The translations under genes and the position numbers were made by a program. A model generated the notes under the pieces. The model was not told where the DNA came from. It saw only the letters and a list, made by a program, of their open reading frames with translations, and made no database searches. A stretch of DNA of 64,000 nt from a bacterium. Lineage in GTDB: Bacteria > Patescibacteriota > Minisyncoccia > Phycocordibacterales > UBA12088. Below are positions 14,842 to 24,748 of the stretch, in pieces (position 1 is the stretch's first letter; every line of letters begins with the position of its first letter). Where the stretch lies: contig QKEV01000013.1 of the NCBI GenBank assembly GCA_003252295.1, positions 25,920 through 89,919 of the forward strand, read 5' to 3'.

Positions 14842-15891
14842 CTAGTCTTTCTTTTCTGTATCTTTCTCATCCTTGTCATCCTTTTTTTCCTCTTCTTTCT
14901 TCTCAGTAGTAACAACCTTCTCCTTATCAGAAGAAACAGCTTCTTCAGGTTCCTTTACCCGTATCACTGCGTGTCGTACTGCAAGAATAATAACCATCAA
15001 CAGTAGCGGAACAACCGAACAAAACTGATCAAGGAAGAATGAGAAGATGAGTGCTACTCCTATTGTTGTCAAAATAGTAAAACTTGCCTGAGCAATCCGC
15101 TCAGCAGCACCTCGTGTTGCAGGTCGTAGTACATCTCCAATAGCAGCTATGAGGAGTGCAATGGTACCAACACCAACAGGCACTACCCAGAGTGAGGATT
15201 GCTTTGTTACCGCGATAAAGAACACGACAACACCTACACCACTCACTATGTAAAGTCGCTTCATTGAATCATGTGAACCAAGTGCTTCACGTGCTTCCTT
15301 TGAGAAACAGGTTGCACCTATGAGCGCTGCAAGTACCAACGCCCACACTATCCAAATATTATTACAACCATCATCAGTCGCTGATGACTCTTCTGTTGTA
15401 GCTGCAGCAACACTTCCCGCTTCCTCAGCAGCACCTCCTTCTGTACTTTCAATAATAGAAACACTTGGTGTAGCTGCCACATCGGTAAACATAAATGCTA
15501 TTTCAGCTGATGCTACCCATGCACCACTATCGAGTCGGCTCAAAGCCCTACAGTGATGTTCCTCATCTGAAAGTTCAGCAAGTGGCATAGCATGATCTTT
15601 TACTAACCCTTCGAGTACCGGGGTGCTCCATGTGTATCCAAAATTAACCTTACTCTCATCATAGGTAAATGGAGCCTGTGTTGCATTACCACATACCACC
15701 AAACTCTGTGCATACTGATTTGTCTCCCATACGATCGTTGCCGTCTTCTGTACACTGTCCACATCTGTCACATGTGCATTAGAAATACTAAGTGCTGCAC
15801 CTTCATCTTGAGCATGCACCTGACCAAAGAAACCTAGTGCGAACACAAAGAGTAAACCGGTCACTACTATTTTTTTGTAACTACTAAACAT
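14842..15891 (-). CDS. Membrane protein: signal peptide, extracellular Fn3-like domain, 4 TM helices, K/E/D-rich cytoplasmic tail
   Basis: 349 aa; hydrophobicity pattern and low-complexity KEEKKDDKDEKD tail. Confidence 0.5.
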   Translation of the reverse strand: MFSSYKKIVVTGLLFVFALGFFGQVHAQDEGAALSISNAHVTDVDSVQKTATIVWETNQYAQSLVVCGNATQAPFTYDESKVNFGYTWSTPVLEGLVKDHAMPLAELSDEEHHCRALSRLDSGAWVASAEIAFMFTDVAATPSVSIIESTEGGAAEEAGSVAAATTEESSATDDGCNNIWIVWALVLAALIGATCFSKEAREALGSHDSMKRLYIVSGVGVVVFFIAVTKQSSLWVVPVGVGTIALLIAAIGDVLRPATRGAAERIAQASFTILTTIGVALIFSFFLDQFCSVVPLLLMVIILAVRHAVIRVKEPEEAVSSDKEKVVTTEKKEEEKKDDKDEKDTEKKD

Positions 15892-16656
15892 ACTTTAAAC
15901 ATTACTCTACCCCAAAAGCAGCACCTTTCGGCACCACCTACGAGTTAGGACTTATAAAGAGCAGAACACTGACGTATCCAGTGAACGAATACCTATATAG
16001 TAGCATCTCTTTTGGTAAAAAATGACACTAGGACACAGTTTTATTGTTGACGCAATACAATTTGTATATTATTAAAATAGAGACAGTTATCCACTTCCTT
16101 ACAGGTCTCAAGATGGATACGTACTTTGTAAGAAGGGTGTGCGCAACCCGACAGCTTCGCAGAAGCTGGTTTCCCTTTGGGGTACGGCATGCCCTTCTTA
16201 CAAAGCAGGTATCTTTTTACAAAAAAACAAAAGTTATTTAGAAACACCTTATTCACCCTTTTTCCACAAAATAATCACAGGGTTACCAAGTGTTGACATC
16301 TAAACGGCGAGGAGTAGGGTGGAATATACACCAAGGGAAACCAGCGACTTGCGTACTGACGCATGTAATACGTTCACCATGTCGCTACACACTACACAGA
16401 CACATACTCAAGGGGGAACATCTCTAGGGCGAGGTACGTCAACTCACACGGCTAACAGGTCGTGTTTTTTATTTACTCAAAAGCAAAATTACCTACAACG
16501 CACACGAAATTTTTAGGAAACAAAACTTCGTGTGGGCTGTACACACAAATAACGTAGGTTCACGCTGGTCGATACCCGTCTCAAAAGGAGACGGTACATT
16601 ATCAACTTTCTGTCTAACCCTTAATGACAGAACATTACAAAGGTAATGCAAATACC

Positions 16657-17901
16657 ATGAAAACAATAACAAAATCATTCATTGGTAGGACTGCAGTACT
16701 CGCACTGCTCCCTACCCTTGCACTTGGGCTATTCATGGCTCCTGCTATGGCAAGTGCGGATGGTAACCGCGGTGGATCACGTGACGGCATCACAACAGAG
16801 GTTGAGGTGACTAACGTAAATAATGCCGCTGTAGTAAACGCCTTCAGTGTACGAAGTGACACTGGTGGCAATACTGCAAACGGCGGTGATGGAGGTGAAA
16901 GCGGTGATACTGGAGACAGTGGTGATGGTGCAGGTTCTGGAGGAAGCGGAGGTGATGGAGGTGATGGGGGTAACGCCTCAGCTCGTAGCGGTGACCTATC
17001 CTACGCAGACAGTGGTGCAGGTGCACGTGGTGGCACTGGTGGAGATGGTGGCAACACCGGAAACACAGGTGCTAGCGGTGACACAGGAGATGGTGGTGAC
17101 GGTGGAAGGATAACTACCGGCAATGCCATTTCAACACTCACGGTCCAGAACGATGTCAACAGCAACAGAACTACTGTCGAAATTAGCAACGATTGTGATG
17201 AGTGTGCTCCATACAATGAATACTACATGGCAGCAGATGCCTACTATCAGGCAAATCACAGGAGTGCAAGTTCATACGAAGATCTCGGTGGAAGTGGCTC
17301 AGAAGCATACGATGGTCGTGGGGAAACAAGCTCAAGCTCATACGTTGACCGAGGTGAATCTGGAGCATCCTCAGAAAGCGGTTCTATGACCGGTGAGTCC
17401 AGTTGGGTTATGTACTCAAAAGAGTATGTGCCGGTACGTACTGAGGTTGAGGTTGAAAACGTTAACAACGGCTTTGTGCTCAACATGGGATCTGTTGAAT
17501 CTGAAACCGGTGACAATGCCGCTGACGGAGGTGACGGAGGTGAAAGCGGCACCACAGGAGACAGTGGTAGTGGTGCAGGTTCTGGAGGAAGTGGCGGTAT
17601 TGGAGGTGACGGTGGCAATGCACGAGCACTCACCAGCGATGATGATGGTGGTCGTGACCTCTGCTTCGACAGGAGAAGTGGATGTGGTGATGACGATGAT
17701 GGTGACGGTATGGCAATAGCTATTGCTGATGACGGTGGTGCAGGTGCTACCGGAGGTGAAGGTGGCAACACTGGAAACACAGGCGCGAGCGGCGACACTG
17801 GTACTGGTGGTAGCGGCGGCGTAGTGGTAACAGGTATAGCTGACTCACTTGCAGGTGTAGTAAATGTTACTAACCGCAATGTTACCCGTATTGTGCGTTA
17901 G
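16657..17901 (+). CDS. Secreted Gly/Asp/Asn-rich repeat protein (paralog family with 18050..18481 and 18459..21431)
   Basis: Start chosen at MKTITKSF (signal peptide). Two copies of the VTNVNNAxVxN...TGGNTANGGDGGESG(D/T)TGDSG...GG(D/I)GGDGGNA module. Confidence 0.55.
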   Translation: MKTITKSFIGRTAVLALLPTLALGLFMAPAMASADGNRGGSRDGITTEVEVTNVNNAAVVNAFSVRSDTGGNTANGGDGGESGDTGDSGDGAGSGGSGGDGGDGGNASARSGDLSYADSGAGARGGTGGDGGNTGNTGASGDTGDGGDGGRITTGNAISTLTVQNDVNSNRTTVEISNDCDECAPYNEYYMAADAYYQANHRSASSYEDLGGSGSEAYDGRGETSSSSYVDRGESGASSESGSMTGESSWVMYSKEYVPVRTEVEVENVNNGFVLNMGSVESETGDNAADGGDGGESGTTGDSGSGAGSGGSGGIGGDGGNARALTSDDDGGRDLCFDRRSGCGDDDDGDGMAIAIADDGGAGATGGEGGNTGNTGASGDTGTGGSGGVVVTGIADSLAGVVNVTNRNVTRIVR

Positions 17902-18049
17902 TGCCGTACGTGTGCGAAGCACAACATTCGGGTTGCGCGACGGAAGAAGGGGTAGACATAAAAACATGTCTCCCCCCTTCCACTAAGAACTTACAGGGCC
18001 TCAAAACACAGAACTCAAAACCAAGAACCCTTAAGTTCTTACGGAGGGT

Positions 18050-18481
18050 ATGAAGTACATAACTTATAACACCTATATGAGCATGTTTCTCCTCGTGGTA
18101 GTCATACCACAGGCAGCATTTGCGGAAACTGCTATTCATAACAACATTTCTGTTTCAACAAAAACAGGTGGCAACAGCGCACCAAATGGTGGCGAGATAG
18201 TGACCGGTTCACAACGTGCATCTGTACATATTGAAACCCGAGTTAACGATGAAGCGGTAACAGGTATACAAAAAACATCGGACCAAGATACTGTCATTCA
18301 CACGGCAACAGTTATCTCCACTTCCCCAACTGTATCCATTACTACTCAAAAGACACACCAAACCGCAGTTCTACCGCTTGAGTACGAGGTATCAAAAAAA
18401 GACACACACTTAATCCTTATCTCTCACCTCATTACTAGTTATTCAAAAACAATGGCTTATGTACTATCACATCACATGTAG
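18050..18481 (+). CDS. Small secreted protein carrying one copy of the N/T/G-rich module
   Basis: 143 aa; signal peptide; NNISVSTKTGGNSAPNGGEIVTGSQRASVHIETRVN resembles the repeat unit of its neighbours. Confidence 0.4.
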   Translation: MKYITYNTYMSMFLLVVVIPQAAFAETAIHNNISVSTKTGGNSAPNGGEIVTGSQRASVHIETRVNDEAVTGIQKTSDQDTVIHTATVISTSPTVSITTQKTHQTAVLPLEYEVSKKDTHLILISHLITSYSKTMAYVLSHHM

Positions 18482-21431
18482 CATACTGCGACGACATGCA
18501 TACGTACCTCTGAGCACTATACTGCTTTTGGTTGTGATGCTACCTTTTCAAACGACATCGCTCCATGCACAAGAAGAAACTGTAGTTACAACACAAGAGG
18601 TGCAAGATACCGTAACAACTGGAGGAGAAACTGGTACTGTTGGTGAAGGTACAACCAACACGGAAAGCACCACTCCAACAACAGAGGCAGTTGATACTAC
18701 CAACGACACATCAGAAGATACAACAGCAACCACGATCGACACCGGTGATGCGGATGCACTACTTGAAAGTGAAACTGATGCAAACACCAACAACACCTCG
18801 GTAACCGAGGTGGTTACTACACAGCAAGAAGAAAGCGAGACTAGTACAGATACATCATCGGAAGAAACAGACAAGAATACAGAAGACACAACATCAACCG
18901 GTGACGTACCACCTGACTCAGAAACGACGGTAACAAATGATAACACCGCAGATGTTGCACTCGATGCAACCATTACAGCTGACACCGGCAACAATACAGC
19001 TCTTGATAACAATGAGGCGATCATCACCACCGGTAATGCAGTGAGTACCGCTAATGTCGTCAATGTGGTCAATACAAATATCTTTAACTCAACAGGACTG
19101 TTCTACTTTCTTAACCTCATACTTGGCAATATCTCATTTGATACGAGGGATCTCTTTTCGATCTTTACTGGAGATACAGAGGTGACAGGGGGATGTGGTG
19201 ACGCCGACCCATGCACAGTTGGAGACACATCAGTAACCGTGAACAATACCAATACCGCCGTGGTAAACAACACCCTCGAACTGATCGCCAATACCGGCAG
19301 CAACACAGGTAGCGCAACAGGAGACGTAAGCATCACCACAGGAGATGCATATGCTTCTGCAAACATTGTGAACCTAGTAAACACCAACATCACCGACACT
19401 AATTACCTCCTCCTCACAATAAACGGTTTTGACGCTGGAAGCGGCGGCGTTGTTTTCCCTGGTGCTGAGTGGTTTTACGAACTCTTGAGTCAAGGTGAGA
19501 GCATTGCGCAAGGCAGTCAGGTGACGGTAGAAAACACCAACACTGCAATCATCAACAACACGAGCTCGGTTACCGCTGACAGTGGTGGCAACACGGTTGA
19601 AGGAGATGACACATCGATTACTACCGGCAACTCAGGTGCTCAAACATCGATAGTAAACCAAGTTAACACAAACATCTTTGGCAGCTCAATCTCCCTCCTC
19701 TTCAACATTCAGGGTTCTTGGGCTGGAGAGATTTTTGGGCTCCCTGATGGTATGAGCTGGAGAGAAACTGCAAGTGGCGTTGAAATATTCTTTGATGGAG
19801 ATACGGTGCAAGCTCCTGCGGGAAGCACCGATAACCTCACCGTTACAAACACGAATAACGCAGAGATAAGCAATAACGTTTCTGTGTTTGCATTAACCGG
19901 AGATAACATGGCAACCTCCGAAAGCGGTGATGCAAACATTGAAACCGGTTCGGCACAAGCATCAGCAAACATTGTGAATATTGTAAACACGAATGTGCTC
20001 GGTAGGAACTGGATACTCGCCATCTTCAATATACTCGGTGACTGGAATGGCAACATTTCTTTTGGACAACCAGACCTTTGGATTGGCGTGCGCGCACTCA
20101 CACAACCAGCAAACATACGAGTGGGGAGCTGCTTCGAGTACGAGTTCACGGTAAATAACTTTGGTGATGCAGACGCACATGATGTCGTACTGTACAGCAA
20201 CCATACACCATTCCAGCAAGCTATTGATTTCATGCAACGGGAAGCAAACGGTTCATACTCCTACCCTATTGGTGATGTAGCAAGTGGCGACTCTATCACC
20301 TTCACCCTTCCTATCTGTGTTAGCGAGTTTGCAAATGCCAACAGGGACATCACCACTACATTTGAGGTACTCGAAAATGAAGACGATGCTGACTATGCAA
20401 ACAACAAGGACACCATAGGGTTCACCATGGCAAAGGCAATTGGTAGTGCACTCGTCTTTGGAAAAAAGTATCCAGATTTCAGCATCCAAAAAGTTGTCGA
20501 TAAAAAAACGATTACTGCATCAAGTACGGTAACGTATGAGATAACCATACAGAATGGTGAAAATCCTATCTACAACGCCCTCCTCGTTGACACCATATTC
20601 AACCCCGATAACCGCCCTATACATGAGCAACGATGGGGACTTGGAACGATACTCAAGAATGAAACGATCATTATCAGCTACGAAGCGCTCTTTAACGAAG
20701 ACTCTTCTGCGGGTATGTACCTCAACGAAGCATTCATATCAGGTACAACACGCGAACCTGCAGAAACAGTACAAGACCCTATCAAGTCTCCTGTTGCAAG
20801 TGTGTCGGTAAATGTTGTTGATGAACTCCCTGCAGCACCTTCCACAACATGCACGCCACTCCTCAACACATACATACAGAAAAATGGGAACAACAGTCGA
20901 GACGAGGTTGGTGAACTACAGTTCTTTTTGAGAACCATTGAAGGGGACACTTCGGTATCCCTTACAAAAGAGTACGACGAAGCAACCATTCAAGCAGTGC
21001 GCGCCTTTCAGGAACGGTACGCACAAGACATACTTGAACCATGGGGTATGACAGAAAGCTCAGGGTACGTGTACTACACAACACAAAAGAAGATCAATGA
21101 ACTTTGGTGCAAGGATATCGACTTCTCACTAACAGATGAACAATTGAAAGAGATCGAGACTTTCAAAAAGAGAACGAGGAACTACATCGAACGTCATGTT
21201 AATCTTCCCGAAGAAACATTTGAAATGTTTGGAAGTATGCAGGAGGAAGCACCTGTTCCTGTTCCAGCGATACACATTGAAAAAGAAGAGCAAACTACTG
21301 AACAGCAATTAGTATACCCTCATCAAATTGCAACAGCGGAAGCAGCAACAGAAGGTGTAGATACCATGGCAGCACTCATTAATGCCTTACGAACGGGTGT
21401 AAAAAACTCACTACTGTTCTTCTCCCGCTAG
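18459..21431 (+). CDS. Large secreted surface protein: T/E/D-rich linker, 4x ~80-aa N/T/G-rich repeats, two DUF11/CARDB-like domains, PG_binding_1-like domain
   Basis: 990 aa. Repeats such as VTVNNTNTAVVNNT..NTGSNTGSATGDVSITTGDAYASANIVNLVNTNI occur 4 times. VGSCFEYEFTVNNFGDADAHDVVLY is DUF11-like. GELQFFLRTIEGD...DEATIQAVRAFQERY is peptidoglycan-binding-like. Confidence 0.6.
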   Translation: MYYHITCSILRRHAYVPLSTILLLVVMLPFQTTSLHAQEETVVTTQEVQDTVTTGGETGTVGEGTTNTESTTPTTEAVDTTNDTSEDTTATTIDTGDADALLESETDANTNNTSVTEVVTTQQEESETSTDTSSEETDKNTEDTTSTGDVPPDSETTVTNDNTADVALDATITADTGNNTALDNNEAIITTGNAVSTANVVNVVNTNIFNSTGLFYFLNLILGNISFDTRDLFSIFTGDTEVTGGCGDADPCTVGDTSVTVNNTNTAVVNNTLELIANTGSNTGSATGDVSITTGDAYASANIVNLVNTNITDTNYLLLTINGFDAGSGGVVFPGAEWFYELLSQGESIAQGSQVTVENTNTAIINNTSSVTADSGGNTVEGDDTSITTGNSGAQTSIVNQVNTNIFGSSISLLFNIQGSWAGEIFGLPDGMSWRETASGVEIFFDGDTVQAPAGSTDNLTVTNTNNAEISNNVSVFALTGDNMATSESGDANIETGSAQASANIVNIVNTNVLGRNWILAIFNILGDWNGNISFGQPDLWIGVRALTQPANIRVGSCFEYEFTVNNFGDADAHDVVLYSNHTPFQQAIDFMQREANGSYSYPIGDVASGDSITFTLPICVSEFANANRDITTTFEVLENEDDADYANNKDTIGFTMAKAIGSALVFGKKYPDFSIQKVVDKKTITASSTVTYEITIQNGENPIYNALLVDTIFNPDNRPIHEQRWGLGTILKNETIIISYEALFNEDSSAGMYLNEAFISGTTREPAETVQDPIKSPVASVSVNVVDELPAAPSTTCTPLLNTYIQKNGNNSRDEVGELQFFLRTIEGDTSVSLTKEYDEATIQAVRAFQERYAQDILEPWGMTESSGYVYYTTQKKINELWCKDIDFSLTDEQLKEIETFKKRTRNYIERHVNLPEETFEMFGSMQEEAPVPVPAIHIEKEEQTTEQQLVYPHQIATAEAATEGVDTMAALINALRTGVKNSLLFFSR

Positions 21432-22078: not shown

Positions 22079-23485
22079 CTAGATTGTTTGCTGCATGACG
22101 TAGTACACCTCTTTTGGCGTACCATCGTACTCAAGGATACCAAAGTGATTCTCAATAGTGTCGGTATCTGCTCCGAGGTCTCGGTAGCTGTACCAGAACA
22201 GAGGTCCCATCCACTCATTTTCTTCTTTATACTCATATGCTTCCACAAACATATCCGCTTGAAATTCTTCTGATACATGTGTCGGTTGTGACCAAGAAAA
22301 GGTACTATTACCATCTGCTTCCTTCCCTGGTCCGCCAGTTGGTGCACCAAACTCGGTCACCCAAACTTTTTTCCCTCCATCACCATTCTTTTCCATGATA
22401 CCACGCAAGCTCCACATACTTTTATCCATCTGGGTCCACGCGTTACTGGTTCCCGCCTCCTCTGGACTCAAAGGAAAACTATATGGATGAAAACCAAGCA
22501 CATCAAAGAAACCTTGTGCACCATTCTCATACATACGCTCAAGGTACTCTCTAGGTGACACACTTGTATCATTCGTGTCAGAAGGAGCAAGACCCCCACT
22601 CACCACAACCGCATCAGGATCTATAGTGTGTATTGTACGGTAGGTACGTTTCAAAAGCTGTGTGTACTTGTACGCATTCACACCACCTGCCCAAAACTTT
22701 GCAATGTTTGGTTCATTCCATATTTCCCAGGTATCCACTCCCATTGGCTCATAGCGTTCTACTGCCTTTTCTACAAATACCGCAAACTGATCAATATCTT
22801 TCGGAGGACATTTGCTCGTGTACTTACAGGTATCCTCTCGTGCCCACACCGGAGTGTAAGTGATAATCGGGAGCACCTCTATACCGCGCTCATACGCAAG
22901 GGTTACTATACGGTCAAAGCTAGTCCAGTTGTATATATCCTCACGTTCATTCTGAATAGTGTTCCACGAAAGGTCACAGCGTATCCAACCAATATGTAGT
23001 GAGGCAATATCATCAAGTACCATCGCTACCTCACGCTCCTCCATGTATGAGAGTGTTGCCCCCATAGAGAGACCGTACTCGTAGTTCTGTACACCTCCCT
23101 CTCCCTCTGCCTCAACATCTTGCGCAACCTTCACCTGTTCTTTTTCTGCATAGACACCAGCATCCTCCGCAACCTGAGGAACATCTGAAGTAACCGCTTC
23201 CGTACCAGTTGCTTGAGTGTCCACATCTTCTACTGTAACTGCATCCTGCTTTGGAGCAACCGAGACATCATACTTACTAAACACAAACCAGTACGTAAAA
23301 CCGAGCAACATGAGCACTAAAAGAAAGACACCACCAGCAAACACAACTGCTCGCTCCAGCGTATCTTTGTTTATCTCTTTGATATTTTTTTTCTTACTCA
23401 TATTTGGAATTAAAAATGCGTTGAAAAACAACAGCATTAGTATACATAGATATTGACAAAACGCAATAGTTTTAGTATTGTACAC
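22079..23485 (-). CDS. Membrane-anchored glycoside hydrolase, TIM-barrel GH5-like
   Basis: 468 aa; N-terminal TM; acid/base WEIWNEPN and nucleophile VWVTEFG motifs. Confidence 0.6.
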   Translation of the reverse strand: MYNTKTIAFCQYLCILMLLFFNAFLIPNMSKKKNIKEINKDTLERAVVFAGGVFLLVLMLLGFTYWFVFSKYDVSVAPKQDAVTVEDVDTQATGTEAVTSDVPQVAEDAGVYAEKEQVKVAQDVEAEGEGGVQNYEYGLSMGATLSYMEEREVAMVLDDIASLHIGWIRCDLSWNTIQNEREDIYNWTSFDRIVTLAYERGIEVLPIITYTPVWAREDTCKYTSKCPPKDIDQFAVFVEKAVERYEPMGVDTWEIWNEPNIAKFWAGGVNAYKYTQLLKRTYRTIHTIDPDAVVVSGGLAPSDTNDTSVSPREYLERMYENGAQGFFDVLGFHPYSFPLSPEEAGTSNAWTQMDKSMWSLRGIMEKNGDGGKKVWVTEFGAPTGGPGKEADGNSTFSWSQPTHVSEEFQADMFVEAYEYKEENEWMGPLFWYSYRDLGADTDTIENHFGILEYDGTPKEVYYVMQQTI

Positions 23486-23491
23486 GGTACC

Positions 23492-24748
23492 ATGAATAGA
23501 CTGATTGCACTCTTACGAGAGAACAGTCTCATACAAAACTCATTCTATCCGATGCTCTCGACCGCTATTATGGCGGGGCTTGGTTTTCTCTTCTGGATGT
23601 TTGTTGCTCGACTGTTCCCTGAGAGCGAGGTTGGTCTTGCTGCTACCCTTATTTCTGTCATGAGTACAGTGTCTATCTTTTCCCTACTTGGGTTTGACAC
23701 CTCAACCATTCGATTTCTCTCAAAAGAAAAAGACAAGAATGCAAGCATTAGTACAAGCATTATCATCCTCTCTTTCACTGCATTTGTGCTTTCTATGCTT
23801 TTCGTAATCCTTGTTACCACCATCTCACCACAACTCTCATTCCTGTTTGAAAACAAAATGTTAGGTGGACTCTTCATACTCTTTACAATACTTTCTACCA
23901 TTAATGGATACACTGATGCTGTCTTCCTCTCCTACCGCAAGACCAAGTACACACTCATCATCAACACCATCTTTAGTGTTGCTAAGACATGCTTTCCTTT
24001 TCTCTTTATTGGGACTGGTGTGTTTGGTATTTTTGCCTCAGCAGCACTCGCACAGACGATTGGTTTTGTACTGAGCATCATGGTACTTGTTCGCTATTTT
24101 GGATACCGACCATCACTCTCGATTAACGCTTCTATCATACGCAACGTATGGCGATACAGTGCAGGAAACTACGTGGCAGACATTTTTACCTTTCTTCCTA
24201 CCGCTCTTCTGCCTATCATCATTACCAACAACATCGGTGCTGAGCATACTGCTTACTACTACACCACCATGATGATTATTGGATTGCTCTACGTCATTCC
24301 CACGAGCACCATGCGAGCCCTTTTTGCTGAAGGTTCACACGACAAGGACACGGTTTCAAAAAACATCTGTACTGCCCTCAAGACAACGTCTTTTTTCTTA
24401 CTCCCAGCAATGGCTGTGTTATTTCTCTTTGGTAAGTACCTTCTCCTTGCATTTGGTACCAGTTACGTGGAGAGTGGAACCTCACTCCTCTATGTCATGA
24501 CATTCACAGGAGTACTCGTTACCATATCAACACTCTACAGTTCTCTTTTTCGTTTAGAAGGCAACATCCGTGCACTCATTATTAGAAACATGGTGTATAC
24601 AGGAAGCTTAATAGGACTCACGTACATGTTCTTGGAACGTGGTCTCCTTGGTGTAGGTTTTGCATATATCAGTGCATATACTCTTTCAATACTCGTTTGC
24701 ATGGTACTCTATAGGAAAGACCATACTACGATTTGCATAACCAAGTAA
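23492..24748 (+). CDS. Polysaccharide/oligosaccharide flippase (Wzx/MOP family)
   Basis: About 12-14 TM helices across ~420 aa, typical of polysaccharide biosynthesis flippases; start set at MNRLIALL. Confidence 0.55.
   Translation: MNRLIALLRENSLIQNSFYPMLSTAIMAGLGFLFWMFVARLFPESEVGLAATLISVMSTVSIFSLLGFDTSTIRFLSKEKDKNASISTSIIILSFTAFVLSMLFVILVTTISPQLSFLFENKMLGGLFILFTILSTINGYTDAVFLSYRKTKYTLIINTIFSVAKTCFPFLFIGTGVFGIFASAALAQTIGFVLSIMVLVRYFGYRPSLSINASIIRNVWRYSAGNYVADIFTFLPTALLPIIITNNIGAEHTAYYYTTMMIIGLLYVIPTSTMRALFAEGSHDKDTVSKNICTALKTTSFFLLPAMAVLFLFGKYLLLAFGTSYVESGTSLLYVMTFTGVLVTISTLYSSLFRLEGNIRALIIRNMVYTGSLIGLTYMFLERGLLGVGFAYISAYTLSILVCMVLYRKDHTTICITK

Follow-up and report, generated by a model that had tools for sequence, protein, structure and literature searches.

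The A-B-C locus

We analyzed a 64,000-nucleotide stretch of DNA (the window) from a bacterium of the Patescibacteriota (GTDB lineage Minisyncoccia; Phycocordibacterales; UBA12088; assembly GCA_003252295.1, contig QKEV01000013.1, positions 25,920 to 89,919 of the forward strand), in which three genes, here called A, B, and C, encode proteins that share a repeat module. C is a large multidomain protein with four copies of the module, and A and B are smaller proteins with two copies and one copy, respectively. All three open reading frames (ORFs) lie on the plus strand, as observed in the original prediction, which was made from the sequence without database searches (Table 1). The product of A is 100% identical to a database protein (P0089), whereas no entry of the protein collection that we searched is identical to B or C.

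The N termini of A, B, and C each contain a basic stretch, a hydrophobic run (12-residue hydropathy maxima of 2.3-2.6), and an Ala-x-Ala-type site. We read them, by eye and from hydropathy and not with a dedicated predictor, as Sec signal peptides, and to this extent the secretion originally proposed for the three proteins stands.

An uncharacterized repeat module

The module is rich in Asn, Thr, and Gly, and its core motif [IV]VNxVNTN recurs in C at residues 200, 303, 398, and 505. The predicted repeat periodicity thus holds, and the spacing of the core gives a period of ∼100 residues (∼95-107 between core positions) and not the ∼80 residues that had been proposed. A hidden Markov model (HMM) built from the four units of C alone recovers those units with E-values of 2e-32 to 4e-40, in line with the four expected copies. 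When searched against the 760 six-frame ORFs of the window, this HMM matches no ORFs beyond C other than A (E-value of 1.3e-6) and B (E-value of 0.016), so that a module common to all three proteins is confirmed. The two copies predicted for A are present, but each is split by a Gly/Asp-rich insert; the single copy predicted for B is also present, but it is short and degenerate. Gly25, Asn27, Gly41, and Asn54 are invariant among 40 sampled units.

Scans against Pfam and NCBIfam do not match the module in A, B, or C, and the Pfam scan does not match it in 58 A-like relatives. Profiles of 7 and of 40 units match no chain of the Protein Data Bank (PDB), even at E ≤ 10, and a homolog search with a unit-only profile returns five small proteins only. 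Counts of 12,582, 5,371, and 2,315 from representative searches were rejected as measures of family size, because the query alignment still contained DUF11 columns and the counts were inflated by giant DUF11 proteins such as Culicoidibacter P0189.

Several named families were considered and rejected. Toastrack/DUF4097 (PF13349) gave a subthreshold match in one A-like relative (L003; 19.6 bits versus a cut-off of 22.9), which is repeated neither in 58 A-like proteins (E ≤ 1) nor in the proteins of the window. For a relation to curli, an hhalign comparison with Escherichia coli CsgA gave a probability of 0.1%, and there is no Pfam Curlin match. The chaplin family DUF320 (PF03777) has no Pfam match in A, B, C, or the 58 A-like proteins. 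As judged from these searches and from the structure comparison below, the module is an uncharacterized domain family without a database name, which agrees with the original failure to place it.

Predicted fold of the module

We modeled residues 150-990 of C with AlphaFold2 (AF2) from an alignment with 78 homologs, and we also modeled the four units alone. The longer model has a mean predicted local distance difference test (pLDDT) score of 84, with values >90 for the repeats. The four units alone reach a pLDDT of 87.7 and a predicted template modeling (pTM) score of 0.84, the latter indicating that they form one rigid body. Foldseek searches with the module model give no significant match in the PDB or BFVD. 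The top matches are the amyloid subunits FapC and CsgA, both non-significant (E 0.02 and 1.9; template modeling score ∼0.05-0.08).

The topology of the module was addressed independently of the model by mean-field direct coupling analysis (DCA) of 1,022 distinct units (effective number of sequences, Neff, 945). The strongest couplings line up as an antiparallel ladder (i+j = 65-67) between positions 10-29 and 36-56, including the pair Gly25-Gly41, and a second ladder connects positions 62-68 with 75-80. These ladders indicate that each unit consists of one long and one short hairpin, in agreement with the secondary structure of the AF2 model. The long β-hairpin (∼2 x 20 residues) is antiparallel and has kinks at two conserved glycines, and the short hairpin is hydrophobic. 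The β-helix or solenoid that had been expected is not supported, as coevolution gives long antiparallel hairpins instead.

Architecture of C

C comprises a signal-peptide-like N terminus, an acidic Thr-rich linker, the four hairpin modules, two Ig-like domains, a predicted peptidoglycan-binding (PG-binding) domain, a disordered tail, and a terminal helix. The linker shows the composition described in the original prediction (32% Thr, 15% Glu, and 10% Asp) and contains an orphan half-module that is conserved in 78 of 79 C orthologs, with Thr95 present in 74 of the 79. All 79 orthologs cover the four units in the alignment, and HMM domain counts on the same ORFs give four units in 69 and three in 10. 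Each unit carries its own conserved tail, such as the highly conserved NIFGDWxGNIxFGxPDLW of unit 4, which argues that the four units are ancient and not recent duplicates. Between units 1 and 2 lies a loop flanked by two cysteines, Cys246 (79/79 orthologs) and Cys252 (78/79).

The Ig-like domains are of the DUF11 type. This domain, now called CLIPPER, resembles CnaA and forms the stalks of fibrillar adhesins, and its Lys-Asp-Asn triad chemistry has been set out (PMC12617251). As anticipated, two stretches of C match PF01345 (44.4 bits versus a cut-off of 24.6; E 2.5e-11), and nine relatives score between 39.8 and 75.1 bits. AF2 models this region as two all-β domains with pLDDT >90, and Foldseek aligns it with tandem Ig-like domains (transglutaminase C-terminal, integrin calf, RbmA, and WxLIP) at E-values down to 1e-8. 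Domain 1 is present in all 79 orthologs and has no Lys at the isopeptide position. Domain 2, at which DUF7507/CLIPPER_2 scores above its cut-off in two relatives (P0023 and L018), features the triad Lys678, Asp711, and Asn756. The triad reads K-D-N in 70 of the 79 orthologs and R-D-L in 5, and the joint replacement of Lys and Asn in these five fits an isopeptide triad. A Lys-Asn isopeptide bond with a catalytic Asp is found in only some CLIPPER members; domain 2 of C is probably locked by such a bond, as suggested by the conservation of its triad.

Downstream of the stalk, C continues with a helical domain that the original prediction had likened to PG_binding_1. In the window protein the Pfam score remains below the cut-off; we provisionally assign C to this family because orthologous relatives pass the cut-off at the same position (23.8-32.9 bits in 6 of 9 relatives scanned, 17.8 bits in one). 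The domain occurs in 58 of the 79 orthologs, and ∼7 others end in a hydrophobic segment instead, mostly followed by basic residues, which we read as a membrane anchor. At the very C terminus of C, a disordered stretch precedes an amphipathic helix.

As predicted from sequence and models, the domain order of C (signal peptide, distal domain, stalk, and anchor) is that of a fibrillar adhesin. Like C, fibrillar adhesins with DUF11/CLIPPER stalks (PF01345; PMC12617251) combine a signal peptide, a distal non-stalk domain, an Ig-like stalk, and a C-terminal anchor, and they share the Lys-Asp-Asn triad found in the second stalk domain of C. However, C possesses two stalk domains only, and its distal domain is the unnamed four-module hairpin body, accompanied by two small co-encoded partners with the same module. 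Whereas fibrillar adhesins are anchored by LPXTG or OmpA, C would be anchored by PG_binding_1 or, in some orthologs, by the membrane-anchor-like hydrophobic tail. The wall-attached fiber or adhesin that had been proposed therefore holds at the level of domain layout, whereas its function as adhesin or fiber stays an inference.

Glycine-rich inserts of A

The signal-peptide-like N terminus of A is probably cleaved after AMA (residue 43), and the mature part contains 24% Gly. The two halves of the unit HMM match A separately, flanking inserts of 76 and 99 residues, which are located at the tip of the DCA-defined long hairpin. The Gly content of the inserts is 45% in the first and 37% in the second. 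Gly residues follow a "GGx" triplet phase (15/4/15 and 19/7/11 Gly by phase), which is clear in the first insert. The Gly-rich insert is also conserved in the A-like consensus, where relatives show the symmetric pattern GGxxGxGGxGG ... GxGGxGGxxGxGG. We speculate that the GGx pattern could form polyglycine-II or polyproline-II-type helices, or a Gly-rich hairpin.

In an alignment of 58 A-like sequences, A is devoid of the short hairpin of the module. One Cys of the motif between the two modules is invariant in an alignment of 4 A-like sequences and nearly invariant in that of 58 (consensus CGC), and module 2 terminates in the conserved VVNVTNRNVTRIVR. The A-like family consists of small hypothetical proteins, mostly of ∼130-300 residues, that occur in Paceibacteria and match no Pfam model. 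In the loci most closely related to the window, the C-like gene is followed by an extra A-like paralog, which is encoded on the other strand (Table 1).

Gene B and the A-B spacer

B is organized into a putative signal peptide (residues 1-25, AFA|ET), a degenerate short hairpin module (residues 26-72), a Ser/Thr-rich stretch, and an amphipathic C-terminal segment. The C-terminal segments of B-like proteins (L001, L002, L005, and L006) and of C-like proteins alike are amphipathic and in many cases rich in aromatic residues, as in ...FFTHIFDWVFKLHF and ...FGFFRLWW. Such ends could be a common membrane-interface or partner-binding element.

The start codon of B is preceded at a distance of 2 nt by GGAGG, and B overlaps C by 23 nt. 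The spacer between A and B folds into two adjoining RNA hairpins (z-score of -4.36 versus shuffled sequence), and in the second hairpin CCUUCC pairs with the Shine-Dalgarno sequence GGAGGG of B. A stable hairpin follows the stop codon of the A-like gene in 69 of 70 loci, versus 12 of 70 shuffles; this GC-rich hairpin often comes before the one that pairs with the Shine-Dalgarno sequence. Many loci (spacers of L008-L087) have the motif CCCUUC-variable stem-GAGGG-N2-6-AUG before the B-like gene, with unrelated stem sequences, and RNAalifold finds 11 pairs across 20 loci, 9 of them with compensatory changes. An Rfam scan of the window gives no match at the gathering threshold for the spacer hairpin. 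These features suggest that A is expressed separately, and probably at a higher level, and that translation of B and C is throttled and coupled.

An alternative explanation is a functional fiber of the chaplin, curli, or TasA type. In such a fiber, A would be the major subunit, with its long hairpins stacked into a cross-β sheet, C would be the anchored nucleator or anchor (compare the long chaplins and TapA), and B would act as an adaptor or as a minor nucleator. We regard this as unlikely. It would account for a large, anchored multi-module protein accompanied by small secreted proteins with just one module or two, for a conserved Ala/Asn/Val face that is left exposed in A without a covering short hairpin, and for an expression layout suited to a major subunit and minor components; FapC and CsgA are also the top Foldseek matches. 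However, these matches are non-significant, the hhalign probability with CsgA is 0.1%, and the modules of C form a well-packed rigid body and not an open template.

The resemblance to known fibers is likewise partial. Streptomyces chaplins combine a large anchored multi-copy protein with small secreted one- or two-copy proteins and thus resemble A-B-C in logic only, as their domains are hydrophobic, comprise ∼40 residues, and are sortase-anchored, whereas the A-B-C module is Asn/Thr/Gly-rich and forms long hairpins. The pairing of subunit and nucleator in curli (CsgA/CsgB) is again similar in logic only. Curli and Fap amyloids share with the module Asn/Gly-rich imperfect repeats and G-x-N-x-A-like turns, but curli form a parallel β-solenoid and have their own export by CsgG, CsgE, and CsgF, in contrast to the antiparallel hairpins of A-B-C and the lack of dedicated export genes in the 80 loci described below.

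Conservation of the A-B-C trio

None of the homologs of the repeat region of C has a protein name, and almost all of them come from Patescibacteria. In a scan with one genome per species, relatives of the four-unit region occur in at least 166 species genomes, and all 80 loci that were kept belong to Patescibacteria or to unclassified metagenome-assembled genomes. The best relative of C (65% identity) is found in Parcubacteria GW2011_GWD2_42_14, and the order A, B, C also occurs in Parcubacteria OLB19, in the complete Nomurabacteria genome CP060227, and on other contigs.

Gene order was counted in the 66 loci for which 2.2 kb or more of upstream sequence was available. In 61 of these loci, the C-like gene is preceded by an A-like gene on the same strand; a B-like gene lies directly upstream of the C-like gene in 43, and both are found in 41. 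The overlap between B and C is recurrently 23-26 nt. Clustering of the ORFs of the 80 loci yields no other family in more than 10 loci and no dedicated export, sortase, or chaperone gene. The recurring order in relatives indicates that A-B-C is a conserved heterologous operon across Parcubacteria, and not the product of local tandem duplication that the original prediction had implied.

The same conservation bears on two further explanations. A, B, and C could be three independent surface proteins sharing a domain, with C as a stand-alone adhesin, separate roles for A and B, and a linkage that reflects co-regulation. This we consider distinctly unlikely. Fibrillar adhesins do usually act alone (PMC12617251), and B is undetected in 35% of the loci. 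However, the genes keep their order, their strand, and the overlap of B with C across class-level diversity, no other neighbors are conserved, and the orphan half-module seen throughout the C family may point to complementation or capping.

In addition, C could be the wall-bound protein of an S-layer-like envelope lattice of Parcubacteria, with A and B as partners. Cells of the Candidate Phyla Radiation (CPR) with surface layers have been seen by electron microscopy, and we know of no identification of the proteins that form these layers. A family that is widespread in the class, with a strongly conserved architecture and a predicted wall-binding domain, would suit a lattice. On the other hand, the long disordered linker and Ig-like stalk would be expected of an adhesin that protrudes from the cell and less of a planar lattice, and none of the known S-layer proteins showed any similarity, which makes this proposal very improbable.

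A proposed wall-anchored scaffold with secreted partners

We propose that A, B, and C together make up a cell-surface module of three genes that is conserved in the Patescibacteria, class Paceibacteria (Parcubacteria), and in which C serves as a wall-anchored adhesin-like scaffold and A and B as its secreted partners. The domain layout is what we observe; assembly and function are deduced from it, and we put the probability of the whole explanation at roughly 55%. All three proteins would be exported by Sec. The C-terminal end of C, by its predicted binding, would tether C to the peptidoglycan of the bacterium itself, and the CLIPPER stalk would keep the four-module body away from the wall.

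Without a short hairpin as cover, the long hairpins of A would expose their conserved Val/Asn/Ala face, and A, perhaps also B, may therefore dock onto or extend the module array of C via β-sheet contacts. A would provide the Gly-rich tips. A would also be made apart from B and C, as the hairpin pairing with the ribosome-binding site of B would throttle translation of B and C, and the 23-nt overlap would couple the two. The outcome would be an adhesive or structural surface assembly for contact with host cells or surfaces.

Several points weigh against this proposal. The two modules of A could instead bury their conserved faces on each other, which would make A a monomer. The signal peptides of A, B, and C were judged by eye and hydropathy alone, and the PG_binding_1 (PF01471) score of C in the window is 18.8 bits and thus does not reach the cut-off of 23. 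Only 65% of loci yielded a B-like gene, although the HMM used to find it was built from just six sequences. The Shine-Dalgarno sequence is "paired" in 28 of 34 cases (82%) for B versus 50 of 78 (64%) for other genes, and hence weakly above the control. Literature searches on CPR functional amyloids or S-layer proteins returned nothing on the A-B-C family.

For Paceibacteria that parasitize archaea, one study describes secreted proteins of unknown function that are highly expressed, contain PG-binding and Ig-like domains, and were proposed to act in host attachment (PMC10936435). However, the one protein compared, PMX_810_sub_00350 (692 aa; PMC10936435), differs from C in length and in its neighbors; orthology is not established, and it lends no support to our proposal.

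A bolder version of the scaffold, which we hold to be speculative and improbable, is a new kind of monoderm surface appendage that is specific to CPR bacteria. C would form the base, anchored in the peptidoglycan, and its four-hairpin body would serve as a template on which A assembles; A, as the abundant subunit, would contact the host cell with polyglycine-II-type GGx tips, and B would be an adaptor made in step with C.

Neighboring sequence

The neighbors of A-B-C in the window are housekeeping and envelope genes (Table 1). Upstream, a spacer of 732 nt separates A from a divergent membrane-protein gene. The product of this gene has a signal peptide and several membrane-spanning segments, together with an extracellular domain and a tail rich in Lys, Glu, and Asp. 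The spacer holds a near-perfect long hairpin with a 19-bp stem and, farther downstream, a terminator-like hairpin with a T-run. The surrounding region has a fold z-score of -3.78 and could represent a small RNA or leader; an Rfam search of the 732-nt region gives no match even at E ≤ 1. Downstream of C lie genes for a glycosidase and a flippase-like protein, which are not conserved beside the operon in other genomes.

Table 1. Features of the A-B-C locus, its surroundings in the window, and extra A-like paralogs in related loci
Feature	Position (nt)	Strand	Remarks
349-aa protein, divergent from A	14842-15891	-	no Pfam match
Spacer upstream of A	15892-16623		732 nt
Structured region in spacer	16090-16480		folding
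Long hairpin in spacer	∼16114-16212		
Terminator-like hairpin and T-run	16446-16465		
Gene A	16624-17901	+	ORF, 425 aa; alternative start 16657 (414 aa)
A module 1	16792-17181	+	N-half aa 57-85, insert aa 86-161, C-half aa 162-186
GGx triplet phase, first A insert	16879-17106	+	
A Cys motif CDEC between modules	17194-17205	+	CGC in relatives; alignments
A module 2	17437-17898	+	N-half aa 272-299, insert aa 300-398, C-half aa 399-425
GGx triplet phase, second A insert	17521-17817	+	
Two adjoining RNA hairpins, A-B spacer	17949-18047	+	folding
Gene B	18050-18481	+	ORF, 143 aa
B amphipathic end (aa ∼118-143)	18401-18478	+	shared feature of B-like/C-like proteins
Gene C	18459-21431	+	ORF, 990 aa
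C T/E/D-rich linker (aa 38-152)	18570-18914	+	composition
C orphan half-module (aa 92-112)	18732-18794	+	inside linker, I-x-TGDA...N-x-NTN
C unit 1 (aa 153-240)	18915-19178	+	HMM E 2e-32; AF2 pLDDT >90
C Cys246...Cys252 loop between units 1 and 2	19194-19214	+	ortholog alignment
C unit 2 (aa 256-345)	19224-19493	+	HMM E 4.5e-38
C unit 3 (aa 352-450)	19512-19808	+	HMM E 1.5e-34
C unit 4 (aa 457-546)	19827-20096	+	HMM E 4.4e-40
C Ig-like DUF11/CLIPPER domain 1 (aa 548-660)	20100-20438	+	PF01345; AF2 β-sandwich
C Ig-like CLIPPER/CLIPPER_2-type domain 2 (aa 675-790)	20481-20828	+	second DUF11 stretch
C helical PG_binding_1-type domain (aa 809-914)	20883-21200	+	Pfam in relatives; AF2 helices pLDDT >90
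C C-terminal amphipathic helix (aa 968-989)	21360-21425	+	AF2 H819-840 (model numbering), low-moderate pLDDT; shared feature of B-like/C-like proteins
Membrane-anchored GH5/GH39-like glycosidase	22079-23485	-	downstream neighbor
Polysaccharide-biosynthesis flippase-like protein	23453-24748	+	downstream neighbor
Extra A-like paralog, locus L011	6496-7647	-	locus among those closest to window
Extra A-like paralog, locus L012	6688-7758	-	locus among those closest to window
Extra A-like paralog, locus L013	9429-10658	-	locus among those closest to window

Implications

Little is known of how Parcubacteria and other CPR bacteria construct their envelope and adhere to hosts, and annotation is missing for most of their surface proteins. 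Our analysis defines a domain family without a database name or detectable structural relative, a fixed architecture that is predicted to tie it to the wall, and a conserved three-gene unit. If true, the appendage outlined above would add both a new fold and a new principle of assembly to the means by which ultra-small episymbionts attach to their hosts. For annotators, A, B, and C provide three new families, and for the study of surface structures and host contact they are a candidate with a confident model, the hairpin topology of which is testable.

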